Of a DNA stretch of 64,000 bases, positions 17,331 to 64,000 are shown one piece after another. The DNA is taken from positions 132,811 to 196,810 of the forward strand of contig NZ_RAVX01000011.1 of the NCBI RefSeq assembly GCF_003611605.1, in the 5' to 3' direction. Position 1 is the stretch's first letter, and every line of letters starts with the position of its first letter. The notes under the pieces are model-generated. The model did not search any database, was not told the DNA's origin, and was given only the letters and a program-made list of their open reading frames with translations. A program made the translations under genes and the position numbers. Source of the stretch: Corallococcus sp. AB011P. GTDB taxonomy: Bacteria; Myxococcota; Myxococcia; Myxococcales; Myxococcaceae.

Positions 17331-17413
17331 AGCGGCCGGCGCACGGCGGCTGTCTTCCCGCCCGTCCCTCCCATGCGGGCCATGACTCCCCCACCTTCTA
17401 TAGGGGGTGAACG

Positions 17414-17812: not shown

Positions 17813-17813
17813 G

Positions 17814-21336: not shown

Positions 21337-21460
21337 TCCGCCGGGTATTCATAGACCCTGATCGGGTTTGGACAGACACCTCAAAATCTCACAACATGTC
21401 TGTCTTCATGTTTTCAACCTGATAGATCGCCCTTTCCTCTCGCTGCGCCAGGAAGGTGCG

Positions 21461-40475: not shown

Positions 40476-40976
40476 CTACTTCGGGGCGGGCCCTGGCTCC
40501 GGGTGCGCTGTCAGCGCGCGATACGCCCGGTTCCAGTAGAGCAACGGTTCTCCGTCCACTCCCCGCTGGATGCGCTCCACACGGCCCACCAGCAACAGGT
40601 GATCGCCGTAACGGTGCACATCCAACAGAGCGCACGCCAGACCCACCAGGCTGTCCTGCACGAAGACGCCTTCGTCGAACATCCGGCCTTCGGCCTCCCC
40701 CGTCGCGCAGCGGACCGACACGTCGCGTTGGATGGTGGACAGCACGCTCACACTGAAGCGGCGGGCGGCCTCCACGCGCTTGAGCGTGCGGGAGGACTGC
40801 TGCAGCGCCAGGACGATGAGCGGAGGCGTCAGGGAGAGGGAGCTGAAGGAGCTGACCGTCGTCGCCGCGATCCCGTCCGCGTCACGGACGGAGACCACCG
40901 CCACCCCGCTCGCCCACCGGGACATCGCCTCCCGGAAGTCCAGGGCCGACACCCCTTCAGTACCGCTCTGAGTCAT
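40476..40976 (-). CDS. Flavin reductase-like (NAD(P)H:flavin oxidoreductase) domain protein
   Basis: Flavin_Reduct pattern (FREAMSRWASGVAVVS...TVSSFSSLSLTPPLI). Confidence 0.7.
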   Translation of the reverse strand: MTQSGTEGVSALDFREAMSRWASGVAVVSVRDADGIAATTVSSFSSLSLTPPLIVLALQQSSRTLKRVEAARRFSVSVLSTIQRDVSVRCATGEAEGRMFDEGVFVQDSLVGLACALLDVHRYGDHLLLVGRVERIQRGVDGEPLLYWNRAYRALTAHPEPGPAPK

Positions 40977-41073
40977 GTGCCGGTCTCTACCACCCGCCCC
41001 GCCACCCGGTCAGCACTTCCTCCAATCCATTGGCGGAATACCAACGCAGTGGCACTGCCCTCCAGGCCCGTCC

Positions 41074-43470: not shown

Positions 43471-43501
43471 CGTCCCTAGCACTGATGGTGCGGGGGGGAC
43501 C

Positions 43502-46500: not shown

Positions 46501-49500
46501 GCTCGCCAACCTCAACCCGCTGCAGGGCCACTACATCGAGCTCCTCTACCAGCAGGAGCACGACGAGAACCTGCGCGAGCGGCTCAAGAGCGAGCTGGAC
46601 GACTTCTTCAGCACCACCACGCATGACTGGGACAGGGCGGAAGCCCTGCTCTCCGGCAACGCCGCCAAGGCCGCCGCCGTCGAGCTGAACGACGCCATGG
46701 AGGGCACCTTCCTCGGGACCGGCTGGGGCACGGACGAGGACGCCATCTTCAACCTGCTTCGCGGCAAGACGCCGGAGCAGATCGAAGTCATCAAGAAGGC
46801 CTACCAGCAGAAATACGGCAAGGACCTCGTCGCCCAGATGGACGACGAGCTGCGCAGCGGCGCGCGCACGACGCACGACGCGGACGAGATGCACGCCCTG
46901 GTGGAGGGCCGCACCGAGGACGCGCGCGCCATCGAGATGGACCGCGCCATGCGCGGCGGGTGGTTCTTTGGCCTGGGCACCGACCGCAAGGCCATGGAGG
47001 GCGTCTACGACCGCATCCGCAAGGAGACGGAAGCAGACGCGCAGCAGTACGGCTGGGATACCAAGACGTTCCGCGCGGAGCTGCTCAAGCGCAACCAGGC
47101 CATCGACGCGTCGTATGAGCAGCAATACGGCACGGATTGGACCCAGCGCACCGCGGGCGAGAGCGCGCTCAGCGCCGCGTTCCACGATGAGATGAAGGGC
47201 GAGGACCTCAAGCTCATCGAGGGCCTGCGCGACGACAAGGGACTCCAGGTGGATGCCGCGCGCATCCGCATCGAGCACACCAGCATCCTCTACGCGGACG
47301 ACAAGATCATCCGCGACGCCATGTCCGCGCAGGGCAAGCGGCAGATCGCCGACGCGCGCCGCGACGGATACCTGGACGTCCAGGAGCGGCTGGACATCGA
47401 GCGCAGCCTGGACGAGGCGAAGGTCAAACCCGCCAGCGAGGGCCCGCTCACGGAGGAGGACCGCCGCAAGGGCCGCATCAGCGAGCTGGAGTTCCTGGAG
47501 AAGTGGAGCCCGGAGAAGGTCCAGGCCCGCGTCACGAAGGAACGCAAGGAGGTGGACGACAAGGCGAAGGTCCAGGCCCAGGCTGACGCCCAGGCGAACA
47601 TGAAGGCGCTGGCGGCCGAGTACGACAGCGCCTACGTGGAAGGCACGCACCTGCAGGCGGGCTTCGAGCAGGCCGTCCTGATGGACACCTCCGGCGCGGA
47701 CCGCGACGCCGTCGCGGCGATGCTGCAGAAGGGCTACCTCACCGACGCCGAAATCGTTCAGTACGCCGTGCAGGGCGTAGGCACGGACGAGGACGCGCTC
47801 AAGGAGGTCTTCGCAGGAAAGACAAAGGCGGAGATTCAAGCCATGGCCGAGGAGTGGGCCAAGGACCACCCCGCCGATCCTGGTGACACGCGCACGCCCT
47901 TCGAGCGCTTCCGCGATCGCATCGACGAGGAGCTGAGCGGGCGCGAAGAGTTCGACATCATGGACATGGTGGACTACGGCGAGCCCGTCACGCCCCGGGA
48001 GAAGGCGGACCGGGCCTGGCGCCGGGTGCACTTCGAGGCGCGCTCCACCAACAGCATGGCGTCGTCGGAGTACCAGCTGGTGCTGGACCAGGCGTCCGCG
48101 CTCGACGCAGAGGTGAGCGCGCTGGAGCTGCACGAGCGGATGCGCCCCAAGCCCGGGGACAAGAACTACACCGTCGACGGGCTGCGCAAGTGGCAGGACG
48201 ACTGGGAGAAGAAGTCCGAGCGCGTGCAGCGCCAGGGGGACTACGCGGACGAGGCGGTGCAGATGCACCGCGAGCAGGTGGACTTCATCACCGACCGGCT
48301 GGTGACCATCCTCTCCGTGGTGGTGATGGCGGTGGTGGTCATCATCGGCGTCATCGTCAGCATCTTCTTCCCGCCCGCGGGCGCGGGGTTCTGGGCCGCG
48401 TTCGGCGCGTTCATGGCCAGCACGCCGGTGCTGGTGGGCACGGCGGTGGCGACGGCCGCGGTGACGATGCTGACCAAGGCCGCCCTGAAGGGCAGCGCCT
48501 ACGGCTGGGAGGAGGCCGCCACCGACGCGGGCGTGGGCGCCGTGGATGCGCTCGCCTCCGTGGCCACCGCGGGCATGGGCACGAAGCTGCTCAAGCTGGG
48601 GTTCCTGGCGCGCATGGCGGAGGAAGGCGGCGTGCTGGCGCGCATGACGGCGCACGGCCTGGCCCAGGGCGCGGAAGGCCTGGCGCAGGCGGTGCCCTCC
48701 GCGTTCCTGGGCAACGTCCTCAACGACGAGAACTACAAGGGCGGCAACGCGCTCTTCAACGTGCTGGCCGGCACCGCGATGCAGGCGGCGCCGGGCGCGG
48801 TGATGGCCGGAGGGCTGGGCGCGCTGGGCGGCATCTCCAAGCCCCACGTGCCACCTCGAACCCAGGACCTGCTCCACTTCCGGGGCACGCCCAAGGAGCG
48901 GCTGACCCTCTTCAAGAAGTGGAAGGCGGAGAACCCCGCCGGGGACATGAAGGAGTTCCTGCGCGAGTTCGACGACGGCCTGCTCAAGCAGATGTCGGGC
49001 GACTTCGACCGGCAGCAGCTCCAGCGCGCGATGCGCAAGGAGTTGCTCGAGCACATCCCGCCCGCGCAGCGCAAAGCGTTCGCGAACACGCCCATCGAGA
49101 TGCTCTCCGAGGGTGACTTCGAGTCGCTCACCGGCAGCAAGTCCGCGCAGGCCGTCACGATGTTCCGGCGCGGCAAGCCCACCATCATCATCAAGGCGGG
49201 CGCGGACCTGTCCGACCTGGGTGAGGAGGGCCTGCACCTGCTCCAGCGCCACGACAAGGCGACGCGCGAGCTGGTCAGGTCGCTGGACGAAACGGCGCTG
49301 CGACACTGGGACCAGCTGCCCATCGAGAAGCAGTTCGAGCTCTATCGCAAGAAGCTGCGCCTGGAGATCGCGGCTCAGGAGTCGCTGCTCACGTCGCTGG
49401 AGGGCAAGCGCGGCGTGACCCTGGAGCCCGCGGAGGCCACGCGCCGGATCCGGCAGGGAGAGAAGACGCTGGCGAACCTGCGCCAGCGGATGAAGGAGGT

Positions 49501-51655: not shown

Positions 51656-52183
51656 ATGCGTGGTGCTCCGTCGAGGACAGTCACCTGCTACGTGTGCGGC
51701 TCGAAGTTCACCGTGCACCAGAAGCTGGTGGTCACGAAGCGCGACACGGTCGTGCAGCCCGACCCGGACGCGTGCCCGTACTGCGACACGCCGCTCAAGA
51801 CGATTGGCGCGCTGGGTGAGGGCGAGGCCAAGGGCCTGGTGCTGCTCGCCGCGGGCTTTCCGGATGAGGTGAAGGCCTACGGGAAGCCCGAGGACTATCT
51901 GGAGGAGTTCACGCTGACGGAGAAGGACGTCGACGCGCTGGTGGAGCTGGCGCAAGGGTTGGACTTCGCCGCGTGGGAAAAGGACAACGCGGAGCGGCTG
52001 GCGCGGCGCAAGAACCCGCGCGTGCAGGCCGTGTCCCGCTTCCTGCCGAAGCTCCAGGCACGGATGGAGAACGGTGAGCTTCCTGAGCGGTTGCGGCAGG
52101 CCGCGGAGCACGTCAAGGATGTGTACCGCGCGCGGCGGGAGCGCCACCTCGCGATCTTCGAGAAGCGCCAGAAGCAGCGATGA
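51656..52183 (+). CDS. Hypothetical protein with an N-terminal CxxC...CxxC zinc-ribbon
   Basis: CYVCGSKF...CPYCDT. Starts 13 nt after the giant gene. Confidence 0.55.
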   Translation: MRGAPSRTVTCYVCGSKFTVHQKLVVTKRDTVVQPDPDACPYCDTPLKTIGALGEGEAKGLVLLAAGFPDEVKAYGKPEDYLEEFTLTEKDVDALVELAQGLDFAAWEKDNAERLARRKNPRVQAVSRFLPKLQARMENGELPERLRQAAEHVKDVYRARRERHLAIFEKRQKQR

Positions 52184-52965
52184 CGGGCGACGGAGGACGC
52201 ATGGCGGATCAACCGGACAATCCCCCCACCACCTGGAGCGCGCTCTTCGCGGGCGGCCGTGAAGGCGCGGACGCGAAGGAGTTCCTGACGCTCGTGACGC
52301 CCTCCGCGCTGAAGAACGTGAACCTCCCCGCGCGCGAGGCGGGGTCCCTGTGCAACACGCTTAGCGTGGCGCTGGTGCTGTGCGACCCCACGGAGAGCCG
52401 GGCGCTGGCGGAGCCCCTGTCGCGGCTGGCCGGGCCCGCGCTCCAGCAGGTCGCGGAGGACTTCGACGACCTGCGGCCCGAAGAGGTCATCAACGTGCTG
52501 TCGTTCGTGAACGCCCAGGAGTGCGCGGGCGTGCTGGAGGGACTGCTGGCGAGCTCGCCCGTGGAGGCGTGGCTGGAGGCGCTGATGAAGGTGCGCCGGA
52601 CGCTGCACGACGAGCTGGCGTACCGGTGTGGACTGGTGGCGCTGGCGCTGGGGCCACCGGAGCTGGCGGCCCGGTTCGTGGGCGGCGGGAAGCTGACCCA
52701 GGACTTCACGCCGGGGCAGACGTTCGGGTTCAACGTCCAGGGCTTCGTGCGCTACCTGGCGACGGCGCGGCTGCGGAAGGCCCCGGCCCGGGACGTGCGC
52801 CCGGCGTGGGAGACGTTCGTGGAGGCCTTTCCCCTGAAGGCGGCGGCGAGCACGCTGGAGTGGAAGGACCTCCTCTGGGCGGCGCGCGCGTACTTCGCGG
52901 GCCTGGAGGGGCGGCCGGTGGCGCGGGTGGGTGAGTCCCTGCATGCGCGCGTGAAGCCTGCCTGA
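52180..52965 (+). CDS. Hypothetical protein (ATGA-coupled)
   Basis: Overlapping start/stop with its neighbours. Coding-like codon usage. No known domain recognised. Confidence 0.5.
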   Translation: MTGDGGRMADQPDNPPTTWSALFAGGREGADAKEFLTLVTPSALKNVNLPAREAGSLCNTLSVALVLCDPTESRALAEPLSRLAGPALQQVAEDFDDLRPEEVINVLSFVNAQECAGVLEGLLASSPVEAWLEALMKVRRTLHDELAYRCGLVALALGPPELAARFVGGGKLTQDFTPGQTFGFNVQGFVRYLATARLRKAPARDVRPAWETFVEAFPLKAAASTLEWKDLLWAARAYFAGLEGRPVARVGESLHARVKPA

Positions 52966-54479
52966 TGCACTCCCCTGCCCTCGTCGCGCGGCCGGAGGTT
53001 TCCTTCGAGGCGATGGACCGGGTGCTGTCCGCGTTGGGCTGGTTCCTCCAGTCCGAAAGCCAGACGCCTCCGCTCATCCCCGGCGAGCCGGAGTCCGCGG
53101 TGTATGTGAAGCGCGCGACGGACCTGGCGCTCCACTACACGTTCAACCCGGTGCTCCGGCTGCGGGTGCTCGAGTTCTCCGGACCTGACGCGGTGGGGGA
53201 ATGGGTGGCCGTGCGCAAGGTGGTGCCGGTGCTGGAGGCCCCGGCGCTCGCGGCGCTGCTGACGTCGTCGGAGACGCGGGAGGTGCTGCTGGGGTTGCTG
53301 GCCACGGAGGCGCTGCGGGAGCGCTCGTCGATGGAGCGCGTGGCGGCGCTGCGCTTCCATCCGGAGTTCAGCGTGTCGCGGACCGCGGAGCGCGTGCTGG
53401 CGTCGCTGGTGCCGGACGGGACGGAGGAGGCGTTCGCGCGGCTGAAGGCGGAGAAGGAGGCGCATCCGGATCGCTCCGTGCTGTTCGCGCACCTGCCGGG
53501 GGAGGAGCAGCGGCGGCAGGTGTTGCGCTGGCTCATCCAGGATCAGGCGGCGTCGAATCCGGACATCGACGCGGTGCTGCGCTCCGCGCTGGTGGACACG
53601 GACGCGGAGGTGCGGGTGACGGCGGTGATGGCGGCGGCCCGGCTCCAGGCGAGGGAGGTGCTGCCAGCGCTGCGCGCGGCCCGGATGCCCACGTCGACAC
53701 GGGAGGGCGCGGACCCGAGGGACCGGCAGTTCTATTCGAACCTGCGGGACCTGGTGGCCCAGGTGCTCGCGGGCCGGCCGCTGCCTCCGGAGGGTTCACC
53801 GAAGCGTGAGCGGATGGCTCCGCTCTTGCGCGCACTGTCGGGTCCCGCGGACGTGCGGGACGATCCCACGCTGCTGCTGCATGCGCTCACGACGCCGGTG
53901 GATCCGGGGCCACGTTCGGTGGGACTGCCCGAAGCGGTGGTGGAGCGGGAAGGCACATACCGGCTGCGCCGCTCCGGGTTGGAGGCGCGCTGGGTGCCTC
54001 CGGTGGAGCACTGGCTGGGGACGGGGCCGACGCTGCGGCGCGTGACGTCACCGGGGTTCTTCGTCGCTCGGGTGCCCGTGAGCCGGGCCGCGGCGGCCTG
54101 GGCGATGGCGGCTTCGCAGGGGCCGGTGGGTACGGCGGGGCCGGACGCGGAGGAGCCGCTGCCCTGCACTCTCGTGGAGGCGGAGCAGGTGTGCTCGGCG
54201 CTGTCGCGCATTGAGGGCGTGGAGCTGCGGCTGCCTTCCAGCGAGGAATGGGAGATGGCTGCCCGCGGGCCGGACGGGCGGCTGTTCCCGTGGGGCAATT
54301 CGATGCGGGACGACGGGGCTTCACGGGCTTCGCCCTGGGGCGTGGAGAAGCTCGTGGCTTCGCTTCCGCAGTGGGCGCGGGAAGGCCTGCTGTGCGGGGG
54401 ACGGGAACAGCCGCTGTGCGCTTCGCGCCGCGAGGTGGCGGCGGCGGTGGGCGCCGTCCGATGGGTGCTGGCCTCCTGA
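52965..54479 (+). CDS. HEAT-repeat protein with a C-terminal formylglycine-generating-enzyme (FGE/SUMF1-type) domain
   Basis: PBS-lyase/HEAT-like repeats (VRVTAVMAAARLQAREVLPAL). C-terminal RLPSSEEWEMAARGPDGRLFPWGN, matching the FGE-sulfatase domain core. Confidence 0.6.
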   Translation: MHSPALVARPEVSFEAMDRVLSALGWFLQSESQTPPLIPGEPESAVYVKRATDLALHYTFNPVLRLRVLEFSGPDAVGEWVAVRKVVPVLEAPALAALLTSSETREVLLGLLATEALRERSSMERVAALRFHPEFSVSRTAERVLASLVPDGTEEAFARLKAEKEAHPDRSVLFAHLPGEEQRRQVLRWLIQDQAASNPDIDAVLRSALVDTDAEVRVTAVMAAARLQAREVLPALRAARMPTSTREGADPRDRQFYSNLRDLVAQVLAGRPLPPEGSPKRERMAPLLRALSGPADVRDDPTLLLHALTTPVDPGPRSVGLPEAVVEREGTYRLRRSGLEARWVPPVEHWLGTGPTLRRVTSPGFFVARVPVSRAAAAWAMAASQGPVGTAGPDAEEPLPCTLVEAEQVCSALSRIEGVELRLPSSEEWEMAARGPDGRLFPWGNSMRDDGASRASPWGVEKLVASLPQWAREGLLCGGREQPLCASRREVAAAVGAVRWVLAS

Positions 54480-54549
54480 AGCTGACTGGCAGCTCGAGGA
54501 CGCCAGGGCCGCCGCTCACGAAGCTGGGCCCCCTGGGAAGTCGGGGAGC

Positions 54550-54880
54550 TTCAGGCTGGCAGCCACCTCCGGGGACGAAGCTCCTCAAACCTGTCCGACT
54601 GTCGGACAGGTTTCCCGAGGCCGCAACCGGCAGGGCCCCCTCACCCCAAGTCGAGGAGTTTCAGGCTGGCAGCCACCTCCGGGGACGAAGCTCCTCAAAC
54701 CTGTCCGACTGTCGGACAGGTTTCCCGAGGCCGCAACCGGCAGGGCCCCCTCACCCCAAGTCGAGGAGTTTCAGGCTGGCAGCCACCTCCGGGGACGAAG
54801 CTCCTCAAACCTGTCCGACTGTCGGACAGGTTTCCCGCGGCCGCAGCCGGCAGGGCCCCCTCCCCCTCGGTGCCACCGAC
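54550..54880. repeat. Three tandem copies of a 110-bp unit, each containing the 27-bp palindrome AAACCTGTCCGACTGTCGGACAGGTTT (at 54587, 54697, 54807)
   Basis: Seen directly. Unit: TTCAGGCTGGCAGCCACCTCCGGGGACGAAGCTCCTCAAACCTGTCCGACTGTCGGACAGGTTTCCCGAGGCCGCAACCGGCAGGGCCCCCTCACCCCAAGTCGAGGAGT. Copies 1 and 2 are identical; copy 3 carries a few substitutions. Confidence 0.9.
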
Positions 54881-54909
54881 CACCGGTCTCGTCCGTCGAG
54901 TCGGTCGCG

Positions 54910-55131
54910 CTACTTCTTCGGCATCCGGATGCTGGGGTTCGCCGCGACCCGGGGCGCGCTCTTCGCCTTGAAGCTGCCACCGGCCGCGGCCTTCATCGTG
55001 GGCCCCTTGGCCGCGGCTCCCAGCTGGGCCCTGGCTGTGTCCGTCTTGGGCTGCTGCGACGGCGCGATGGCCTTGTTCATGGCGGGCTTGCGGTCGGGCG
55101 TCTTCCGCGTCTGGGGCGTCATTGTCTTCAT
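54910..55131 (-). CDS. Small basic Lys/Ala/Pro-rich protein (73 aa), last gene of the coupled minus-strand operon
   Basis: ATG overlaps the stop of the upstream gene (ATGA). High GC3 codon usage. Disordered, basic composition. Confidence 0.45.
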   Translation of the reverse strand: MKTMTPQTRKTPDRKPAMNKAIAPSQQPKTDTARAQLGAAAKGPTMKAAAGGSFKAKSAPRVAANPSIRMPKK

Positions 55132-55859
55132 GGATTGCCTCCTGGAATGCGGCCGGCGGGGATGCCTTCCAGCTTGAGCGATGCGCCGGGCTGGGCTGGG
55201 ACTTCCAGTTCGACCAGGCCTCCCGTGCCGGTCACGTGGGTGTCCGGGCCGATCTCCAGACGGCAGCCCACCGCCGGGCGCCCCGTGTGGTCCTGGGCCA
55301 GGAGCCTGCGCCGGTCGTCGCTCACCACCACCGACGGTCTCCTCAGCGCGACCTGCGCCTGCGCGATGAGCACGCAGCGCTGGCCCCTCACGCTCGCGCG
55401 GACCTGGGCCCGAACCCGGGCGATTCCGGGGGCCTTGCCTTCGGGAGGCCTCGCGAGGAGCGTGGCACTGGACGCGGGTGGACCTGGGAGCACCGCGCCT
55501 TCCCATACGGCTTCGAACCCTTCGTCCAGTCCCACCGCCGCGAGCGACAACGGCAGGCGGATGGGCTCCGCGCCTACCCAGAGTTCGTCCGGCGCGACGA
55601 TGGCCACTTCGGGATCCAGTTGGACGTCCGCGATCCATGACCAGCGCTCGGCAAGCAGGTCCGCGAGCCAGCCGGCTTCTTCTGGCGACATGCGTACCAG
55701 GGCCTTCTCCACGTGCGCCGGGTCCACCAGCCGTTGGAGCGCCGCGGCGCCGTCCTGGAACCGAGCGTTCTCCAACAGGCCGTCGAGCTGGCCCGGGAGG
55801 TGTTTCGAGAGGGAACGCACCAGGTGGCCCAATCGCTGTCTTGGAGGAAGTGCGCTCAT
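55128..55859 (-). CDS. Hypothetical protein (243 aa) of the phage-tail-like operon
   Basis: ATGA coupling at both ends. Coding-like composition. No recognised domain. Confidence 0.55.
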   Translation of the reverse strand: MSALPPRQRLGHLVRSLSKHLPGQLDGLLENARFQDGAAALQRLVDPAHVEKALVRMSPEEAGWLADLLAERWSWIADVQLDPEVAIVAPDELWVGAEPIRLPLSLAAVGLDEGFEAVWEGAVLPGPPASSATLLARPPEGKAPGIARVRAQVRASVRGQRCVLIAQAQVALRRPSVVVSDDRRRLLAQDHTGRPAVGCRLEIGPDTHVTGTGGLVELEVPAQPGASLKLEGIPAGRIPGGNP

Positions 55860-57067
55860 CCTCGCCTCCTCCACAGCGAGCGGCCGGTCATCCGGCGTTG
55901 CAGTCGCTGTTCTGCTTGCTGGAGCGCTTCGGAGTCCTTCGCCGTGAGGCGGCGGCCGTTCACGAAGAAGGCCCGTGTAATGGTTTCCAGCTCGTATCCC
56001 GGTGCTTCTTCCCACACGGGTTCTTCATCCGGGGCTTCGGCTCGTGGCGGTGCTTCGACTCGCGGTGGAGGAAGCAACGTCTTCACTTCGATGTGCACCG
56101 GCCTTGGTGCGGTGTGCTTCGTGCCCCGTGCTGGGGGGAGCATGGACTCTCCCCGTTCCTCCGATTGGGAAGGACGCGGAGTCCGTGATTCAGGTCTGTC
56201 GTGACGACGTGGCTCGAGTTCTTCCTGGAACGGTGGTGCTTTTCGGGTGCCCGGTGCCGGCGGTCGGGCAAGGGCTCGGGGTGAGCTTCTCCTCCGTGGC
56301 GATGCCTGTGCGGACGTCTCCCTTGGCTCCACTGGGGAATCCTGTGATGGCGCTTGTGTGGTGGCGCGCGCGACACGATGGCGACGTGTTGGGGACTCCG
56401 GGACCCGTGCGCGGATCCGTGGGGGTTCGGTGTTCTTCTCCACGGCGGGTCCAGGCACCCTGCTCCTTCGCGGACTTGGAGCCTTCACGCGTGCTTCGAC
56501 AACGGGAGGGACTTCAGTGGCCTTCTGGCTTTGAGGTTCGGGATGGCCGCCTTGTTGTGAAGGGACCTCCCGGGCTTGGGTGCGAGCACGAGGGGGTCGT
56601 GGCTCCGCGACCTCCGACGGCAGCTCTGGGGCGCTGGGAACAATGGGGAGCGCGAGTGTGGGAGGCGGTTGCCCGTCCTGGATCCGGGTCACGGGTTCGA
56701 CCGACGGCCGTGATTCCCCTGGCTGCGCCGACGTACCGCCAGGCCGGGGAACGCGACGGCGGATGGGGGCGATGGGGTCCGTTACGGCCGGGGCTTCGAC
56801 CCGCACAGGGCGCTTGAGCACGGGTGGCGTCACGTCCTCTGGCTCGGTGAACCCCATGGACCTGGGGCCCGACGGGGGCGACGCGGTCTTCACCGCTCGG
56901 CCTGACTCCCCTTCCCGCCTCCGCGCACCCGGCGTTGGCAGGGACGGTGGCAGCGGTGGATCCACCTTGAAGTCTCCGCGCTCTCCCCGCTCCAGGGGAT
57001 GGAGCACCCGGTCCAGCTCCGTGAGCAGCGCGGCCACCGCGAAGAGGTCGTCTCTTGCTTCGCTCAT
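55856..57067 (-). CDS. Proline-rich, largely disordered protein (403 aa) with a short conserved-looking C-terminal module
   Basis: ATGA coupling at both ends (start 57067 overlaps the stop of the 720-aa gene). Long P/E/R-rich region. C-terminal ETITRAFFVNGRRLTAKDSEALQQAEQRL. Confidence 0.5.
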   Translation of the reverse strand: MSEARDDLFAVAALLTELDRVLHPLERGERGDFKVDPPLPPSLPTPGARRREGESGRAVKTASPPSGPRSMGFTEPEDVTPPVLKRPVRVEAPAVTDPIAPIRRRVPRPGGTSAQPGESRPSVEPVTRIQDGQPPPTLALPIVPSAPELPSEVAEPRPPRARTQAREVPSQQGGHPEPQSQKATEVPPVVEARVKAPSPRRSRVPGPAVEKNTEPPRIRARVPESPTRRHRVARATTQAPSQDSPVEPRETSAQASPRRRSSPRALARPPAPGTRKAPPFQEELEPRRHDRPESRTPRPSQSEERGESMLPPARGTKHTAPRPVHIEVKTLLPPPRVEAPPRAEAPDEEPVWEEAPGYELETITRAFFVNGRRLTAKDSEALQQAEQRLQRRMTGRSLWRRRG

Positions 57068-59226
57068 GTCGGCACTCCCAGCCAGGACCTGAGGACCGTG
57101 GTCGCGGCCCTCAGCTCCGGGTCCCTCAGCACCGTCTTCGTCACGCCGCCGTCCTGCACCGTGAGGCTCGCCGTGCCTGAGTCCAGCTCGATGGGGAGCA
57201 TCACTCCCGTGGCGAGGCTCGGGCCTCCGAAGCCCTTGAAGTCGCGCCGCAGCGTTACGTCGCGCACCAGCGCCTTGGGCAGCTGCAGGTCGCGCAGCGT
57301 GATGACCACGACCTCCTCGTCGTCCTCGCAGCACAGTGGCGTGGGCGTCGCCGTTACCTCGTCGTCCGCTCGGGCCGCCGCGCCTGTGCGCACGTCCACC
57401 GTGTCCACGGTGGCCACGCCCTGCCACCACGTGCCTTCGTCGTCCGCTCCGCGCACGAGCAGCAGTTCCCCCGGCCTCGCCACCTGCACCGGCTTGCTCG
57501 TTCCAGACGTACTCGTCAGCGGGATGCCATCCAGGAACAGTCGTGTCGCTCCCACCTCCACCGGCGGCAGCAACTGGAACGTCTGGCCTGCATACGGCGC
57601 GGCCACCGCCGGAGGCACCAATCCCAGCGCGCCTCCGCCTTGCCCCAGGATCAGGTTCAGCTTCGCGCCCAGGGCGATGATCTCCTGCACCACGCCGTCC
57701 GCTTGCGGCCCTGTCGCCGCGTGCCCGTCCATCAGCTCCTGTGACGACACCGACACCGCGCTCCCGTCCACGGGCGAGCCATTCCTCACTAGCCCGGCGA
57801 CACCCGGCAGCTTCGCGTCCGTCGCGATGGACACATTCAGCGGTGCGATTCGCAGACGCTTGTCGGCCCCTTTCACCTCCCAGCCCAGCACCAGCGCCAG
57901 CGTGGGCCGGTCCCCTCCCACGTGCGCCACGTGGCCCGGCTGCACCTGTCCCAGGTCCACCGTGGGCGTCACCGACAGCGCCGTCGCTTGCGTGAGCGTG
58001 TCCTTCACCAGGGCCACCGCTCCCACCAGCGGGATTCCCGTGGACTGTCCCGCGAGCAGCCGCGTCAGGCTGTCGCAGAACGGCTTGAGCACGAGCTTCA
58101 GCAGCGGTGCCAGCGCGGCCCGGTTGCGTGCGTCGAACCATCGCTGCCGGAAAACCCAGTGGAAGCGCAGCGACCACTCCAGCGTCCGGAGCATCCGCAA
58201 CGAACCGTCCGGATACGCCAGCCGCGACGCCACCGCTTCGTCCATTCCCTTCCCCGCCTCAATGTCCAACGTCGTCAGCTCGTTGGACAGCTGTCCGGGG
58301 ATGCCGGGTGAATCCGCCCGCCTCAGCGTGGTCTTCAACGACGCCAGCCCCGGCACGGACGCAATCACCGTGCGTGGCGGCTGGAGCGCCGTGGCGACCG
58401 CTCCGTAGTCCGTTGCCGACGCCTGTAGAGAATCCGCCGCGCGCTGGAGCGCATCCGTCAGCTCCTGGGCCGCCCCCTGCTCCTCCAACGTGGCCTTCGC
58501 CTGGAGCAGCACGTTCCGGTCCGACAGGCACTCCCCCTGGCGCGTCGCGGCGCCTGTCGCCACGGGGCCGAACGCGCTGGACGCCGACGAGACGCTCAAC
58601 CCATCCAGCACGCTGCTCAGGGACACCGTCTCCGACGTCGTCTTCAGCTCCGCTCGCCTCGTGGTGCGCAGACCCGTCCAGGTCCCCAGCTCCGCGACTC
58701 CGCTCTCCGCTGCGTCCTTCCGCTGGTCCGTGGTGAAGAGCCCCGCGTCGATGGCGTCCTCCACGGTGCCGCTCTCCGACAGGGGCCCGAAGTCATACGT
58801 GGGCACGCGCACCGCCACTTCGCCGCCGTGCTTCTCGTCGCGGAACGCGAACAGCGTCACCGTGCCCGCGAGCAACGCCGACCCGGTGAGCTTTCCGTCT
58901 CCATCCGCTCCGATGGTGCCCACCGCGAACTCCAGCTCCTCCACTCCCGGCAGCCGGCTCTCACTCCCCACGAGCGAACCGGCGGACACCGTCGGCAGTC
59001 CGTCACCCCGAGGCGCGGCGGCCAGGGCTGGCGCTAACGCGATGCCCACCGCGCGTCGGCGGGCCCGTTCGATGACGTTGAACACGGGCAGGAGCGCGCA
59101 CACGGTCTGGACGTGCGGCGCGTCCTGCTCCGCCACCCCGTCCATGCGGTCCAGGAACGCCTCCAGCTGCTTCCAGGCCGCCTGCCATCCGTCCAGCTCC
59201 ATGCTCAGGCGTGTCACCGCGCTCAC
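57064..59226 (-). CDS. Hypothetical large protein (720 aa), possible baseplate component
   Basis: ATGA-coupled to its neighbours. Uniform coding statistics. Size and position, two genes downstream of the spike, fit baseplate wedge proteins, but no motif is recognised. Confidence 0.55.
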   Translation of the reverse strand: MSAVTRLSMELDGWQAAWKQLEAFLDRMDGVAEQDAPHVQTVCALLPVFNVIERARRRAVGIALAPALAAAPRGDGLPTVSAGSLVGSESRLPGVEELEFAVGTIGADGDGKLTGSALLAGTVTLFAFRDEKHGGEVAVRVPTYDFGPLSESGTVEDAIDAGLFTTDQRKDAAESGVAELGTWTGLRTTRRAELKTTSETVSLSSVLDGLSVSSASSAFGPVATGAATRQGECLSDRNVLLQAKATLEEQGAAQELTDALQRAADSLQASATDYGAVATALQPPRTVIASVPGLASLKTTLRRADSPGIPGQLSNELTTLDIEAGKGMDEAVASRLAYPDGSLRMLRTLEWSLRFHWVFRQRWFDARNRAALAPLLKLVLKPFCDSLTRLLAGQSTGIPLVGAVALVKDTLTQATALSVTPTVDLGQVQPGHVAHVGGDRPTLALVLGWEVKGADKRLRIAPLNVSIATDAKLPGVAGLVRNGSPVDGSAVSVSSQELMDGHAATGPQADGVVQEIIALGAKLNLILGQGGGALGLVPPAVAAPYAGQTFQLLPPVEVGATRLFLDGIPLTSTSGTSKPVQVARPGELLLVRGADDEGTWWQGVATVDTVDVRTGAAARADDEVTATPTPLCCEDDEEVVVITLRDLQLPKALVRDVTLRRDFKGFGGPSLATGVMLPIELDSGTASLTVQDGGVTKTVLRDPELRAATTVLRSWLGVPT

Positions 59227-60833
59227 GGGCCGCTTCCCTTCTTCGGCGGGGTCGGTGTCGGCGTGGACGTGTCAGCCGCGGGGGGCTGCGGACTCGGCGG
59301 GCGCTCGGACGCGCCAGGACCTCCGAAGCCGATCGCCAGCGAACGCCCTCCCCGGCGCTGGGAGTGCTTCGTGGACAGCATGCCCTCCAGGATCTCCTTC
59401 TGTTCCTCCACGTGCTCCTTCGACTGATCCAGCACGTCCACCAGCGTGGAGCGGCCTCGCTCGGCGGCGGCCTTCAGCTCATCTGGCGTGCGCCCCACCG
59501 CCTTCACGAACCTCTCGGGCGCCTTCTCCACCGCGTTCACGAACTTGTCCGCCTGCTTCTGGGCCGTCGTCTTCAGGTTGCCCCAGGCGTCCTTCACCTC
59601 GTCCGTGTTCGCCTCCAGCACCTGCGCCGCCTGGCTCTCCTCCAGGGCCTTCTTCACGTCCTGGAGCGTGAGGTCTCCCGACGCCAGCTCCATCGCGGCG
59701 GACAGGCCCAGCAGCTCCCAGAGCATCGCGGCCTTCGCCAGGTTGGGCCCCGCCGCCAGCAGGCAGATGCCTCCCACGTAGCCGCCCGGGGGCCGGTCCG
59801 TCGCCGTGAGGAAGGCCTGCTTCAACCCCGCCACGCCGCCCGTCGTGGACACCGGCAGCGCGTACATGCCCGCGGACTTGAGCGCGTTCAGCAGGTCGAT
59901 GATGGCCTGCACCGCCTGCGCCAGCTTCATCAACACCTGCACCTTGTCCTGCATCGCGGCGGCGAGGCTCCGCAGGAGCGTCGCCAGGTTGTCCACCGAC
60001 AGGAGCAGCGCCCTGAGCGCCTCCGGGAGGATGAGCAGCTTCTCCAGGTCCGGGAACAGGTCGCGCATGCGCGCGGACTTCCAATCCGGCTTCACCGGCC
60101 GGCCACGCGCCCGGCTGCGGCGCGGATCCAACGCGCCCTTGGGGTACTTCTCGAACGCCTTCTTGAACGCGCTGATGTTGAGCAGCTTGCCCAGCAGGTA
60201 CAGCGCCTGCCGGAGCGCATCCAGCGACGGCGCCGCCATCACGATGAACACCGCCTGCACCGGCGCGCCATCCGTCACCGTCGGGCGCGAGTCGTCCCCC
60301 GGATCATCGAAGGACGCGACGAACCGCCCCGCCCAGCGCGCGAAGCCGTCCGGCGTCACCGGCGGGCGCTCCAGCGCGAAGCCCGCCTTGAAGTCCTTGG
60401 GGATGTTCGGGATGAAGCCCGTCTCCGCCAGGTTCGTCTCCGTGGGACTGATGCCCGGCGCGTCCGCGTAGAGGTACGCACCCGCGTTGAGCAGGTCGTT
60501 GATGATGTCCTTGAGCAGCTCGTAGGCCGCGAGGATGAGCGCCCGGAACGGATCCGGCAGCCCCAGGAGGATGGCCGCCAGCGCCTGGAGCAGCGCCTGC
60601 ACGAACTGGAGCACCGCGATGATGATCTGCAGCGGCGGCTTGACGATGCCCACCAGCTGCTCCAGCCCCGGCGGCACGCCGATCAGCAGCGGCCGCCACG
60701 CAGGCCCGGCCCCGGCGTCAGCGCCGGTGGTGTCCGTGCCTTCCGCATCCTCCAGCGCCTTCGCCAGCTCCTCGCAGCAGACCTCCAGCGCGCCGTGGAG
60801 CTCAGCGATAGCGGCGTCGTTGAACTCGGCCAC
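59223..60833 (-). CDS. Hypothetical protein (536 aa), possible baseplate component
   Basis: GTG start preceded by GGGAGGA. Contains a hydrophobic helix (IIIAVLQFVQALLQALAAILLGL). No recognised domain. Confidence 0.55.
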   Translation of the reverse strand: MAEFNDAAIAELHGALEVCCEELAKALEDAEGTDTTGADAGAGPAWRPLLIGVPPGLEQLVGIVKPPLQIIIAVLQFVQALLQALAAILLGLPDPFRALILAAYELLKDIINDLLNAGAYLYADAPGISPTETNLAETGFIPNIPKDFKAGFALERPPVTPDGFARWAGRFVASFDDPGDDSRPTVTDGAPVQAVFIVMAAPSLDALRQALYLLGKLLNISAFKKAFEKYPKGALDPRRSRARGRPVKPDWKSARMRDLFPDLEKLLILPEALRALLLSVDNLATLLRSLAAAMQDKVQVLMKLAQAVQAIIDLLNALKSAGMYALPVSTTGGVAGLKQAFLTATDRPPGGYVGGICLLAAGPNLAKAAMLWELLGLSAAMELASGDLTLQDVKKALEESQAAQVLEANTDEVKDAWGNLKTTAQKQADKFVNAVEKAPERFVKAVGRTPDELKAAAERGRSTLVDVLDQSKEHVEEQKEILEGMLSTKHSQRRGGRSLAIGFGGPGASERPPSPQPPAADTSTPTPTPPKKGSGP

Positions 60834-60996
60834 GCGCGTCCTCCCGGGTGCGTTGTTCCAGCTCCATCAGCTTCTCCAGCCGCTCGGCGTCCTGGGCCAC
60901 GCCCACCGCCGCCGCCTGGAGCAGCAGGGCCTTCACCTCCTCCAGCCGCTCGCGCAGCACCGAAGCTTCCAATGGCTTCCAGCCGGGCTCCTTCAT
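60802..60996 (-). CDS. Small coiled-coil protein (64 aa) between the spike and the 536-aa gene
   Basis: ATG 4 nt after the spike stop. High GC3. Overlaps the next gene's start by about 30 nt in another frame. Confidence 0.4.
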   Translation of the reverse strand: MKEPGWKPLEASVLRERLEEVKALLLQAAAVGVAQDAERLEKLMELEQRTREDARGRVQRRRYR

Positions 60997-61000
60997 CGCG

Positions 61001-62188
61001 TCACCCCACCGGCATGCGCTTGACGAAGCCGAAGTAGGACCAGTCCAGCATCGGTGTCATCGCCGCCCAGACATCCAGGAGCGGCCCGTACGCGGCCACC
61101 GTCAGCGGGTTCACCGCCTTGAGGATCTGCGCCAGCATCGTGAAGTGGATGGCCAGCCCGTCCCCCAGCACCATGGGCGAGATGGCGGAGAGGCCTCCCA
61201 CCTGGCACACGCCCAGCATCGTGTTGATGGACACGTTGCCCGCCAGCGCGTCAATGGAGACGGCGTTGAGCGACGGTCCCGGCAGGTCCGGCATCGCCGC
61301 GGCCACCTTCACCGCCTTGCCCGCTGCCAGGTTCACGTTGCCCCCGGACGTGACGCCAAAGCCCCCTACCGCCGTCTCCTGCGACGCGCCGGACACGATG
61401 CGCGTGTGGCTGCCCTGGATGCGGTCCTCTCGCGGACCGCCGACGATCTCCTTCAGGCCGCTGCCGCCCACCGTGCGCGAGTAGCCCGCCACGTCCACCT
61501 TCTCCGTCAGCGACCCCGTCACGTGCAGCGACACGTCCCCGCCCACGTCACGGGTGTGGCTGCCGTCCACCGTCTCGTCCTGGTTGCCCGCCACCTCCAG
61601 GTGGTCGTCGCCGTCCACCTCCGCGGAGCGGTTGCCCTCGTTCACCGTGCGCTCGTTGCTGATGAGCCGGTCGAGGCCTTCCGCGGACAGGATGACGCGG
61701 TTGCCCTGCCGGTCGTGGATCTCCACGCGTGCTGTCTCCGGCCGGTCGTCCAGGACGATGTAGTGGCCCGTGGCGGACTTGAGCATCCGCACGCCCGGCA
61801 CCGCGGACTGGGGCGGATAGTCGTGCTTGGGAATCTCACTGACGTCCGGGGCCACGCGCGCGGTGGAGTCCGGCTGGCCCAGGTCCGCGAGCGCGGGCTG
61901 CCCCCACCACATGCCGCTCCAGATGGGCTGGGTCAGGTCTCCGCCCTCGAACTCCACCCAGACACCCGCGCCCACGTCCGGCACCACGAAGAGGCCCTGA
62001 TCCGGCCCCGCGTACGGCGTGCACGGCATGGCCCAGCCCGTGGCCACGTCTCCCATCAGGCGCGGCACCACGCACTGGATGCGCCCCAGGTTGAGGGGAT
62101 CCGAGACGTTCGTCACGTAGCCCCGGTACTTGCCGAAGTAGCGGCTCTCCGTGCGTTCGATGAGCTGCTGCAGCAGTTGTTCGATCAT
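61001..62188 (-). CDS. Phage baseplate spike protein (gpV/gp5-like OB-fold N-terminus plus beta-helical needle), equivalent to an Afp8/VgrG-like component
   Basis: N-terminus matches the Phage_base_V pattern (YRGYVTNVSDPLNLGRIQCVVPRLMGD...GWAMPCTPYAGPDQGLFVVPDVGAGVWVEFEGGDLTQPIWSG). Followed by repetitive beta-helix segments (HTRDVGGDVSLHVTG..., GSHTRIVSG...). Confidence 0.75.
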   Translation of the reverse strand: MIEQLLQQLIERTESRYFGKYRGYVTNVSDPLNLGRIQCVVPRLMGDVATGWAMPCTPYAGPDQGLFVVPDVGAGVWVEFEGGDLTQPIWSGMWWGQPALADLGQPDSTARVAPDVSEIPKHDYPPQSAVPGVRMLKSATGHYIVLDDRPETARVEIHDRQGNRVILSAEGLDRLISNERTVNEGNRSAEVDGDDHLEVAGNQDETVDGSHTRDVGGDVSLHVTGSLTEKVDVAGYSRTVGGSGLKEIVGGPREDRIQGSHTRIVSGASQETAVGGFGVTSGGNVNLAAGKAVKVAAAMPDLPGPSLNAVSIDALAGNVSINTMLGVCQVGGLSAISPMVLGDGLAIHFTMLAQILKAVNPLTVAAYGPLLDVWAAMTPMLDWSYFGFVKRMPVG

Positions 62189-62394
62189 CGCGCGCTCCCC
62201 AGGTCGTCGTCCTCGTCGTACTGGCGCACGCCAGAGACGTCCGACAGGTTGATGTAGACGGGTGTGGCGCCATCCGGCCCGGTGAGGTGGACGACGTCGT
62301 CGATGAGCTCCACCACCAGGCCCACGTACACCTGGCCCAGCGTGGTGAAGAGGTAGCAGCGCTGCCCCATGCTGGCTTCGAGCAGCTTGCGCAT
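62185..62394 (-). CDS. Small protein (69 aa) upstream of the spike gene
   Basis: ATGA overlap with both neighbours. Sequence MRKLLEASMGQRCYLFTTLGQVYVGLVVELIDDVVHLTGPDGATPVYINL, predicted beta-rich. Confidence 0.5.
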   Translation of the reverse strand: MRKLLEASMGQRCYLFTTLGQVYVGLVVELIDDVVHLTGPDGATPVYINLSDVSGVRQYDEDDDLGSAR

Positions 62395-62735
62395 CACTCC
62401 TCCAGCTTCTGCACCAGCCGCGTGGCCAGCTTCACGCGCGTGTCCACCCAGACGCCCACGTCGCGCTGGCGCTCGGAGGCGAGCCTGCGGCGCGCGGCGC
62501 GCACCAGGTCCTGGAGCGTCACGGGCACCGCGGGCACCGGCGGCAGGCGGGAGATGCGCACGTCCAGCGCCCGGAGCACCGTGGTGTCCAGGTCCAGCTT
62601 CGCGCGCGTGCCGGCCAGGTTCTCCAGCGCCGCGGCCTTCGCGTCGGGCGCGTCCGGCGTGGCGGAGAGCGTGACTTCGGGCAGCGCGGTGCGCTGGAGG
62701 GCGACGCGGCCACTGAGGGCGAAGGGGTCGGGCAT
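62394..62735 (-). CDS. Hypothetical protein (113 aa) in the tail-like operon
   Basis: RBS GCGAGGA before the ATG at 62735. Its stop overlaps the next ATG. Confidence 0.5.
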   Translation of the reverse strand: MPDPFALSGRVALQRTALPEVTLSATPDAPDAKAAALENLAGTRAKLDLDTTVLRALDVRISRLPPVPAVPVTLQDLVRAARRRLASERQRDVGVWVDTRVKLATRLVQKLEE

Positions 62736-62766
62736 GGGGGTGTCCTCGCGAAAGGGGCTTCCAGCG

Positions 62767-64000
62767 CTACGGGTTGAGCTCCACCACTGCGTCGGCTTCC
62801 TGGACGTGCACGCCGGAGGTGGTCGCGTTGCCGACGGCGGCCACGCGCGAGCCGCCCAGGATGATGACGGAGTGGGCATACGGATCCGGCGGCGGCTCCG
62901 GCGGGAGGGGCCGGATGCCCGCGTCCTGCACCGGCTTGGGGCCGGTGGTGTCGCCCGTGTAGAACGAGTCCGCCAGCACCTCGTGCAGCACGGAGACGTT
63001 GAGGATGCTCTCCTTCACCGTGGACGCCGCCGAGTCGATGCCGAGCACGCTCTTGTCCACCAGCTGGAGCGCCTTCTTCGGGTCGCCCTCCGCCGCGGCC
63101 AGCACGGAGCGCACCTGGCCCTGCACGTCCTCGGGCCTGTCCGCGTGCATCGCGACGCGGTCCACCAGGTCCCGCAGCGCGCTCGTGGGTGAGTCGTCCT
63201 TCGTCACCGCGATGCCGTAGAGCGTCCGGGCCGCCATGGTCACGTCCATGGTCGCGGGCAGCTTCGAGCGGACGTCTTGCATGGTGGGGAGGTCCAGCAC
63301 GCCCTTGGAAGGGAACTCCGGCCCGACCTGGGGCGGGAGGGGAACGGGTTGGGTGACGAGCTCCGCGAGCAGCGTGGAGAAGGCGTCGCTCGCCACGTCG
63401 CGGCGGCGCTGGAGGCCGCCCAGGAGCAGCTCCTGGTCCAGGGGCACGCCCAGGGTGGAGCCTCCGCCCACGGGAATCTGGAGCGTGAGCGTGTCCGAGG
63501 GCATCAGCCACTGGGGGCGCAGCACCGGGCGGGGCGGCGTCACCGTCTCCGCGCCCAGCACCACGTTGCCGGTGAAGGTCACCGGCGCGCGCTCCACGCG
63601 CAGGACGACGACGTTCACCGCGTCCAGGCACTGGCACCGGTTGCCGCTGAAGACGGTGGAGTCCGCGCGGCGCAGGTACACCGCGCCCACGGCGCCCTCG
63701 CTGCGCAGCTCGTTGCCGGACACGGCGGCGGAGATGACCGCGCCGCCGTTGCCCAGCAGGAGCAGCGCCGGGCCTCGCGCGGTGATGTCGTTGCCCTCCA
63801 CCTGCACGCCCCGCTTCTCCTTCACCACCGGGCTCGGGAGGATGGGGATGGGCTTGACGAGGAAGTCCACCAGCGCGGGCTGCACCAGCGCCGTCGTCGC
63901 CGAGAGGTAGCGCGACGCCGCCGCGCTGGCGCTCAGGCTGGGCGCGGAGTCCGCGGCCGTCACCGTGAGCGCGCGGTTGAGCACCGGCCCCGAGGCGAAC
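62767..64000 (-). CDS. C-terminal part of a large protein with parallel beta-helix-type repeats (tail-fibre/receptor-binding-like); the N-terminus lies outside the window
   Basis: Frame open to the window end. Repeats such as GNDITARGPALLLLGNGGAVISAAVSGNELRSEGAVGAVYLRRADSTVFSGNRCQC. Coding-like codon usage. Confidence 0.55.
   Translation of the reverse strand, partial: FASGPVLNRALTVTAADSAPSLSASAAASRYLSATTALVQPALVDFLVKPIPILPSPVVKEKRGVQVEGNDITARGPALLLLGNGGAVISAAVSGNELRSEGAVGAVYLRRADSTVFSGNRCQCLDAVNVVVLRVERAPVTFTGNVVLGAETVTPPRPVLRPQWLMPSDTLTLQIPVGGGSTLGVPLDQELLLGGLQRRRDVASDAFSTLLAELVTQPVPLPPQVGPEFPSKGVLDLPTMQDVRSKLPATMDVTMAARTLYGIAVTKDDSPTSALRDLVDRVAMHADRPEDVQGQVRSVLAAAEGDPKKALQLVDKSVLGIDSAASTVKESILNVSVLHEVLADSFYTGDTTGPKPVQDAGIRPLPPEPPPDPYAHSVIILGGSRVAAVGNATTSGVHVQEADAVVELNP

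Follow-up and report, generated by a model that had tools for sequence, protein, structure and literature searches.

The systems closest to the locus described here, a chain of ten genes in a 64,000-nucleotide stretch of Corallococcus sp. AB011P (hereafter the window; contig NZ_RAVX01000011.1, positions 132,811 to 196,810), are the lineage II extracellular contractile injection systems (eCIS). Lineage II loci, and especially those of subtype IIa, carry an afp8 gene that is split into separate gp27 and gp5 open reading frames (ORFs), two copies of afp11, divergent afp12/13 genes and a few unexplained subtype-specific genes, with no recognisable afp14 (PMC6899500). A displacement of the gp5 gene is not mentioned in that description (PMC6899500). 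eCIS loci of Myxococcota have already been catalogued (PMC12923769), and our literature search found no experimental work on them and no description of the gene block that we report. Based on comparison with homologous loci, the chain is very likely the last third of an eCIS operon of ~30-40 kb, which would carry the tail fibre, the central spike and a block of unfamiliar genes in a lineage that extends over Corallococcus, other Myxococcota and uncultured relatives. It is a lineage variant of a known system and not a new kind of system, distinguished by a displaced spike gene and by six to eight co-inherited proteins of unassigned fold. The eCIS context is well supported; the individual roles that we propose for the unfamiliar proteins are guesses.

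The resemblance to lineage II covers most of the machine. With the IIa-like cyanobacterial and actinobacterial loci of our comparison (L013-L077; L-numbers label the homologous loci that were compared with the window), the lineage of the Corallococcus chain shares, in part as seen on related contigs, the sheath, gp19 tubes, tube initiator, gp25, two Baseplate-J proteins, a P2-I-like protein, split gp27 (GPD) and gp5 (base_V) genes, a DUF6519-type fibre, a WHD-AAA ATPase, the lack of a recognisable Afp14 and the presence of extra unfamiliar genes. In contrast to lineage II, the gp5 gene comes after the fibre gene instead of beside the hub gene, the eight co-inherited genes showed no similarity by profile comparison to 14 gene families of the classical loci, neither PAAR nor a separate Pvc16_N cap gene was seen, and the putative effector is a giant annexin-repeat protein. 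The Afp of Serratia entomophila and the PVC of Photorhabdus (subtype Ia) are the same overall machine, and assembly in the cytoplasm and injection of a payload would likewise be shared. The gene logic is also alike, in that the fibre gene precedes further assembly genes (in Afp and PVC, those of the Afp14 tape measure, the Afp15 ATPase and the Afp16 cap) and then the toxins. However, Afp and PVC have a fused VgrG-like Afp8 spike in the canonical position and a PAAR protein (Afp10), whereas the eight unfamiliar proteins of the chain resemble neither Afp14 nor Afp16 by the searches that we ran, and the ATPase lies in a convergent operon. The vgrG-adaptor-effector islands of type VI secretion systems (T6SS) are alike in that a spike gene is tightly linked to accessory genes whose products possibly load on it, but the chain has neither a gp27 domain nor T6SS core genes and stands in an eCIS context. 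Phage spikes (the C-terminal part of T4 gp5, P2 gpV and Mu gp45) share with the Corallococcus spike the OB-fold Phage_base_V domain and the gp5-type beta-helix, but the Corallococcus protein is without a lysozyme domain and has an extra C-terminal region of ~95 aa found only in its lineage.

The chain consists of ten minus-strand ORFs, here g0 to g9, in an unbroken series from 64000 down to 54910 with gene-like G+C at the third codon position (GC3). Since long ORFs occur in every frame at the ~70% G+C of the window, the real genes were picked by codon-position G+C together with comparative data. The first, g0 (62767 to beyond 64000), comprises the C-terminal 410 codons of a giant tail-fibre gene that runs off the window end. 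It is followed by g1 (62394-62735; 113 aa, basic, helical and lineage-specific), g2 (62185-62394; 69 aa, acidic and highly conserved, directly upstream of the spike), g3 (61001-62188; 395 aa, the gp5-type central spike), g4 (60802-60996; 64 aa, basic and helical) and g5 (59223-60833; 536 aa, mostly helical with a strongly hydrophobic hairpin). The series is completed by g6 (57064-59226), a 720-aa member of an uncharacterised family with a long N-terminal helix, a helical bundle and C-terminal beta domains, g7 (55856-57067; 403 aa, Pro/Arg-rich with 17.6% Pro and a pI of 11), g8 (55128-55859; 243 aa, conserved and lineage-specific) and, as the last gene of the operon, g9 (54910-55131; 73 aa, Ala/Lys/Pro-rich, pI 11.9).

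Fibre and spike are the parts of the chain that could be identified. The g0 ORF is open up to the window edge, with a GC3 of 0.97, and its full-length orthologue in L004 (1822-9423) encodes 2,533 aa with an N-terminal DUF6519 domain (3e-08) and right-handed beta-helix repeats (Beta_helix, 6.4e-12) in Pfam, the latter match falling outside the windowed part of g0. DUF6519 is found at the N-terminus of full-length g0 orthologues. A 2026 catalogue of eCIS receptor-binding proteins (PMC12923769) names this domain ‘eBAP5’ and counts it among the five N-terminal domains that anchor eCIS tail fibres to the baseplate. By these matches, g0 is the C-terminus of a giant (~2,530 aa) eCIS tail fibre. L087 (1-6433) has the fibre as two proteins instead, one of 1,769 aa with the beta-helix and another of 601 aa, which matches the C-terminal 410 aa of g0.

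The spike protein g3 matches Phage_base_V (8.7e-24), Gp5_trimer_C (1.7e-06) and Gp5_C (5.5e-4) in Pfam as well as the baseplate hub/spike of PHROGs (4.8e-14), and in hhalign it reached 100% probability against the spikes of classical eCIS, a family drawn from 65 loci, the comparison set from which the 14 conserved gene families were built. It is made up of an OB domain, a gp5-type beta-helix and the conserved C-terminal extension described above. More distant spikes align only up to ~residue 300, with distant homologues from cyanobacteria, actinobacteria and others being 33-62% identical over the N-terminal part. A gp27/Phage_GPD domain is absent from g3 in Pfam and NCBIfam, and its scores stay below the NCBIfam VgrG cut-offs (VgrG_rel, 33.6 vs 275; vgr_GE, 19.9 vs 121.8). 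g3 is the gp5-type spike, which would cap the gp27-like hub. An exact-sequence look-up of g3 returned no record, and a scan with one genome per species found it in 12 loci, from Corallococcus and one Myxococcaceae metagenome-assembled genome (MAG), at 89-96% protein identity.

In classical eCIS loci, represented by L013 with its Pvc16_N cap, WHD-AAA ATPase, eCIS_core (DUF4157), GPD hub, spike, gp25 and Baseplate_J genes, the g3 homologue is located between the GPD hub and gp25, and the same holds for similar loci. The full upstream part of the operon in the lineage of the chain is seen in L082-L084, contigs that were reached via the J-like protein, where the order is a 656-687-aa protein, sheath, two gp19 tubes, a 282-289-aa protein, a 66-69-aa protein, CIS_tube, Tail_X, GPD hub, gp25, J, J2, P2-I-like protein and DUF6519 fibre. 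There the hub gene is directly followed by gp25, and a g3 profile detected no spike or base_V gene between the two or elsewhere in these regions, nor in the stretch of L078 that was covered, from baseplate-J to fibre. Since no spike gene is found at the hub-gp25 position and a base_V gene follows the fibre, the spike gene has been displaced in this lineage from its place between hub and gp25 to a place behind the fibre gene.

L084 and L086, which are a single contig, join the two parts of the operon. This contig runs from the sheath (Phage_sheath_1) through a 2,553-aa DUF6519 fibre into genes for proteins of 115, 66, 394 (Phage_base_V), 63 and 530 aa, which are 36%, 63%, 67%, 60% and 55% identical to g1-g5, respectively. 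Because it carries homologues of g1-g5 behind the fibre, we read the chain as the physical continuation of an eCIS operon. In six Corallococcus-group loci the C-terminus of a P2-I-like protein lies directly upstream of g0, and the gene in this position is homologous to the 1,263-aa P2-I-like wedge protein of a Kofleriaceae MAG, whose gene order is J-like, J-like, P2-I-like, DUF6519 fibre. The baseplate core (gp25, Baseplate_J, P2-I-like protein and hub) is seen in L082-L084 and L086, outside the window itself. The 656-687-aa protein before the sheath and the 282-289-aa and 66-69-aa proteins after the tubes in L082-L084 are conserved and unannotated, with one weak DUF6760 match only; the 282-289-aa protein occupies the gene position of a phage tape measure.

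Within Corallococcus, the whole chain is kept in syntenic order in 11 species (g3 identity, 91-96%), and all ten ORFs were found in every orthologous Corallococcus/Myxococcaceae locus that reaches them. This includes g4 and g9, the two small ORFs whose absence from orthologous loci would, according to the first-pass annotation made from the letters of the window, have spoken against the chain. Junction geometry, starts and stops are the same across 11 Corallococcus orthologous loci except at g8/g9, where one clade has a 31-nt spacer and g9 its own Shine-Dalgarno sequence. The reading frame is retained for all ten ORFs, and the ratio of nonsynonymous to synonymous substitution (dN/dS) is <1 in all of the 60 pairwise comparisons over the ten genes. 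It lies at 0.04-0.7 in 59 of them, the outlier (0.84) being g2 against its closest relative, for which dS is only 0.04. All ten genes are real, conserved and under purifying selection, and the chain that the first-pass annotation had drawn is borne out by frame, starts, Shine-Dalgarno sequences, dN/dS and orthologues alike.

The chain can also be followed far beyond Corallococcus, with its junction geometry mostly retained in contigs where g6 is only 28-48% identical (48% in L079; 33% in L080, in L087 and in L088/L089, which has 78% G+C; 28% in L085). The fibre, g1, g2, the spike, g4, g5 and g6 are present in all contexts that reach far enough upstream, L088 starting only at g4, and g4, g5 and g6 were found at constant size in every context seen. 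The distal genes are patchier: g8 was found in L079, L080, L087 and L089; g7 in L079, L080, L085 and L089, being absent or truncated in L087; and g9 only in Corallococcus and L079. In all, the block of unfamiliar genes accompanies the spike in eight independent contexts, including L079, L080, L085, L086, L087 and L088/L089, and g1, g2 and g4-g8 (with g9 in some) are inherited with the spike as a block.

The first-pass annotation had held that several members of the chain lack detectable homology, and by the methods that we used this applies to eight. For g1, g2 and g4-g9, nothing above cut-off was found in Pfam, PHROGs or NCBIfam, their hidden Markov model profiles found nothing at E-values up to 1 in 66 eCIS loci that do not belong to this lineage (the 65 classical loci and L078), and searches of the PDB by sequence and profile gave no meaningful match for g1, g2, g5, g6 and g8. 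None of the eight has a signal peptide-like segment, which agrees with cytoplasmic assembly.

The two proteins between fibre and spike differ in their rate of change. g1 has a conserved MPD start 12-32 nt past the g0 stop and homologues at the same position in L079, L080, L085, L086, L087 and L089. It is fast-evolving like the C-terminus of g0 (dN/dS, 0.35-0.62), and we guess that it may be a fibre or spike assembly factor. A longer, 161-aa version of g1 was discarded; its first 48 codons are not kept in frame and the longer start is not conserved. Five of the six comparisons of g2 give dN/dS of 0.04-0.22, the remaining one being the outlier given above, and distant loci have proteins 41-63% identical to it. 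g2 gives concordant sub-threshold matches to a small family (DUF6897, 0.015; MM0924_fam, 3.6e-4), and we found no literature that names DUF6897 or MM0924. We considered g2 as a PAAR spike-tip and rejected this, as it has no PAAR match in Pfam or NCBIfam and hhalign gave ≤1.3% against the small-protein families beside classical spikes; no other protein of the chain has a PAAR match in these databases either. Behind the spike, g4 is kept in all orthologues and in L079, L080, L086, L087 and L089, with dN/dS of 0.09-0.40. As a guess, g2 and g4 may be small binding partners of the spike.

The hydrophobic hairpin of g5 spans aa 60-103 (Kyte-Doolittle maximum of 2.26 over aa 67-93), and the alignment of the protein is conserved down to 41% identity with a fairly constant length of 511-545 aa and dN/dS of 0.25-0.61. 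A weak match of g5 to a tape-measure family (phrog_305, 1e-4) stands beside an equally weak match to a head protease and is probably compositional, and a single-sequence AlphaFold2 (AF2) model, all-helical and of low confidence (pLDDT 40), is unusable. g6 is under fairly strong purifying selection (dN/dS, 0.13-0.29), g4 and g5 being less constrained. In a set of 1.84 billion representatives its family forms 72 clusters at 50% identity, and it has a uniform length; Pfam detected no shared domain in 46 members, a metagenome scan found only two loci, and none was found in 2.9 million viral contigs. In the AF2 model of g6 (pLDDT 68.9), a long helix at the N-terminus is followed by a stretch of disorder, a helical bundle modelled with confidence (residues ~200-390) and beta-rich domains (residues ~400-660). 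We guess that g5 and g6 may be spike-associated or lumen parts that take the place of PAAR and tape measure, neither of which was found in this lineage.

The alignment of g7 shows a conserved N-terminal helix and a conserved C-terminus of ~50 aa around a variable, disordered Pro/Arg-rich middle. Its termini are conserved at 30% overall identity, and its frame is intact at lengths of 363-453 aa, with dN/dS of 0.32-0.50 and a GC3 of only 0.67. g8 has dN/dS of 0.15-0.25, and its form in L080 is shorter (165 aa). For g9, GC3 is 0.95 and the profile finds nothing in distant loci; a positional analogue in L079 also begins MKTM, and g9 is absent in L080. The disordered basic proteins g7 and g9 may, again as a guess, be passengers or linkers. 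Neither g8 nor g6 qualified as the missing cap, both being without similarity to Pvc16_N in Pfam and hhalign.

We then come to how the genes are joined. As read from the sequence, a 31-nt spacer separates g0 and g1, g1 and g2 overlap by 1 nt in a TGATG at 62394, g2 and g3 by an ATGA (62185-62188), and g3 and g4 are 4 nt apart (61001/60996). The g4/g5 junction is a 32-nt out-of-frame overlap (60802-60833) between the GTG start of g5 at 60833 and the TGA stop of g4 at 60802, g5 and g6 share a GTGA (59223-59226), and the remaining junctions are ATGA overlaps (g6/g7, 57064-57067; g7/g8, 55856-55859; g8/g9, 55128-55131). A Shine-Dalgarno sequence of the GGAGG/GGGAG type precedes each start and is located within the preceding gene. 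All junction sites listed in the first-pass annotation proved correct, and its description of almost every junction as tight is accurate for these sites, but it had left out the g0/g1 spacer and the long g4/g5 overlap. This overlap is kept at 32 nt in Corallococcus, L079 (8394-8425), L080 (8385-8416) and L087 (8367-8398), the last three having a g5 that is only 40-59% identical; it is shorter in L086 (26 nt) and L085 (4 nt). A programmed frameshift that fuses g4 to g5 was rejected, as the overlap has no visible slippery motif and is just 4 nt long in L085. A GTG start for g2, which would give a GTGA overlap, was likewise rejected: the codon is CTG in six orthologues and g2 starts at ATG.

The junctions had also been taken to imply a fixed stoichiometry of the products. 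Since an A or G is expected before a TGA stop in about half of cases by chance, an ATGA or GTGA motif is by itself weak evidence, and the non-random part of the junctions is the conserved start, Shine-Dalgarno sequence and coding signal. Tight junctions are not peculiar to the chain either. Elsewhere in the window, ATGA overlaps occur both within the convergent operon (52180-52183) and between housekeeping genes (9529-9532 and 10191-10194). In a related operon seen in full, genes lie ≤4 nt apart at 13 of 18 junctions, and overlaps of the same kind join its genes for sheath, tube, hub and wedge, proteins whose copy numbers are very different in established contractile injection system (CIS) structures. 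Because the overlaps also link genes whose products differ so much in copy number, as well as unrelated housekeeping genes, fixed stoichiometry is unsupported, and the compaction is that of an ordinary operon, without special meaning. Neither a sigma-70-like promoter nor a minus-strand terminator-like site was found in 54000-64000, which is weak evidence, as myxobacterial promoters may differ.

The chain converges on a plus-strand operon that begins with an eCIS-type, Afp15-like AAA ATPase (40972-43470 stop-to-stop, start probably near 41090; Pfam WHD variant 2.9e-08, AAA 1.2e-24). Compared with its counterparts in 29 classical eCIS loci, this ATPase has an identity of 37-50%. It aligns over its full length, at 44% identity, with the one encoded downstream of the chain in L088/L089 and is also homologous to the ATPase that neighbours the chain in L080; an eCIS-type ATPase is always found near the chain. 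Residues ~756-831 at the C-terminus of the ORF give a weak match to Pvc16_N (9e-4, below cut-off), so that this end may be a fused or degenerate cap domain. The next gene (43466-51643 stop-to-stop; start candidates 43502 and 43544) encodes a giant annexin-repeat protein of ~2,700 aa (Pfam Annexin, 1.2e-21), whose unrecognised C-terminus of ~700 aa had no match in the PDB. Three further plus-strand genes (51656-54479), joined by an ATGA at 52180-52183 and a TGATG at 52965, encode proteins of 175 aa, 261 aa and 504 aa, the last being HEAT/FGE-sulfatase-like.

The content of this neighbourhood varies among relatives. The convergent operon that faces the chain in the window and in L079 encodes an annexin protein, two small proteins and a HEAT/FGE-like protein, and in the window it starts with the ATPase gene. 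The L080 chain has, immediately behind g8 and on its strand, an annexin homologue (13926-20753; 29% identity over 1,841 aa) that ends in Ntox4 (5.4e-24); next come a HEAT/FGE-like protein and an ATPase in convergent orientation. At the equivalent place L087 contains an eCIS_core (DUF4157) protein (18294-19931, minus strand) and an FGE-like protein, and the ATPase of L089 comes after the chain, on its strand. An FGE-like protein stands beside the chain in L079, L080 and L087, a HEAT/FGE-sulfatase-like partner occurring with every payload type. Across lineages it is the effector-type proteins that vary; the chain, the ATPase and the FGE-like protein are constant. With toxin-marked proteins (Ntox4, eCIS_core) adjoining the chain in relatives, the giant annexin protein of the window is a likely candidate for the injected payload.

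The gap between the two operons holds three tandem 110-nt repeats (54538-54867; 95-100% identical), and every copy contains the 27-nt palindrome AAACCTGTCCGACTGTCGGACAGGTTT. Two more copies of the palindrome lie in another intergenic region (13943-13969 and 14085-14111). No copy is expected by chance, and none of 84 loci compared has an exact match. The repeats look like a strain-specific element of the repetitive extragenic palindromic (REP) kind, which could act as a bidirectional hairpin or terminator.

If this arrangement is read as a working system, the chain would very probably be transcribed as a single transcript on which ribosomes re-initiate from gene to gene. The particle would be assembled in the cytoplasm with the aid of the Afp15-like AAA ATPase of the convergent operon, would carry the giant annexin-repeat protein, which is of toxin type, and after release would inject cells in the vicinity. 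Several observations weigh against the chain being part of such an eCIS. The sheath, tube, hub and baseplate genes would lie beyond the window end, the link to them coming from homologous contigs; no separate cap gene (Pvc16_N, DUF4255) was found in the regions read; hhalign against the 14 classical gene families gave the unfamiliar proteins probabilities of ≤1.5%, compared with the 100% of the spike; and the g6 model matched none of the solved CIS components. We nevertheless consider the eCIS operon the best reading of the chain, and within it the eight unfamiliar proteins most likely act at the spike end. That they are structural is plausible, and they could equally be assembly factors or cargo.

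One specific version of a role at the spike end is that g1, g2, the spike, g4, g5 and g6 (with g7 and g8) make up an undescribed complex that replaces the PAAR and tape-measure proteins, with g5, g6, g7 and g9 fired together with the spike to open or line a path for the annexin toxins. As a whole this version is doubtful. The strongest alternative is that g4-g9, or some of them, are cargo and loading adaptors carried on the spike or in the tube, much like the effector, chaperone and immunity genes behind vgrG in T6SS. Such a role is a tentative possibility that the position of these genes directly behind the spike gene, the disordered and basic nature of g7 and g9, their dispensability in some lineages and the membrane-like hairpin of g5 would all fit, as would the L080 chain, which leads directly to a toxin gene with Ntox4. 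Effectors with a relationship to tape-measure proteins have also been described for CIS (PMC11126660). However, g4, g5 and g6 are always present at constant size, g6 is fairly strongly selected, and the adjacent effectors are the genes that are swapped between lineages (annexin with an unrecognised C-terminus, annexin with Ntox4, eCIS_core); moreover, no toxin, enzyme or immunity domain was detected in g4-g9 by Pfam and NCBIfam or by Pfam on the g6 family. Because of this constancy, selection and swapping, we rank accessory or structural parts at the spike end ahead of cargo. Both readings could hold at once, and g7 and g9 may well be passengers.

The first-pass annotation had compared the chain to virion or baseplate assembly modules. 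The part of this view that stands is a phage-tail-like assembly module with fibre and spike; the part that does not is the virion, since the module belongs to an eCIS. That the chain is instead part of a prophage tail or baseplate, or of an R-type tailocin, is very improbable. Spike and fibre genes and a phage-like tight packing are what such an element would show, but no capsid, portal, terminase or T6SS membrane-complex genes were found among the window ORFs scanned or the gene calls of L082-L087, and lysis genes were equally missing from the scanned ORFs and the related full operon. In addition, three eCIS markers occur (DUF6519, the WHD-AAA ATPase and eCIS_core), the viral contigs searched contain no member of the g6 family, and the locus is syntenic over 11 species. 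A vgrG island of a T6SS is still harder to credit. Its appeal lies in a gp5-like spike followed by unfamiliar genes, and in a protein with LysM and VgrG3-like_C domains elsewhere in the window, but g3 has no gp27 domain and a VgrG score far below cut-off, no Tss genes lie nearby, and the homologue of the chain on the related contig forms one stretch with eCIS genes for Phage_sheath_1 and gp19. That some of g4, g7 and g9 are chance ORFs of high-GC DNA, as the frequency of long spurious ORFs at 70% GC, the atypical GC3 of g7 and the empty g9 search of distant loci might suggest, can be dismissed with similar assurance, as their frames are kept despite indels with dN/dS <1 throughout, their starts and Shine-Dalgarno sequences and the g7 termini are conserved, and the same ORFs were called independently in distant contigs.

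Other genes of the window were recorded in the same scan. A 759-aa bacterial homologue of vault proteins (30860-33139, minus strand) strongly matches domains of the eukaryotic major vault protein, MVP_shoulder (4.8e-45) and Vault repeats 1-4. The protein with LysM and T6SS_VgrG3-like_C (8.7e-53) domains (27463-29199, minus strand) is probably a peptidoglycan-targeting enzyme or effector and is unrelated to the chain. A large protein with Kelch, PKD and Big_9 repeats (21362-23806, plus strand) is probably secreted or surface-located.

eCIS particles are being engineered as programmable protein-delivery devices, and both cargo loading and the composition of the spike end are poorly understood in the large ‘lineage II’ group. 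The chain provides a defined gene set in which to find new spike, tip or cargo-loading parts, in predatory bacteria that are genetically tractable, and the giant annexin-repeat proteins, one of them with Ntox4, are candidate payloads of unusual size. If the unfamiliar proteins do form a complex at the spike end that acts in this way, the CIS of a predatory bacterium would have a new way to load cargo and to pass membranes.

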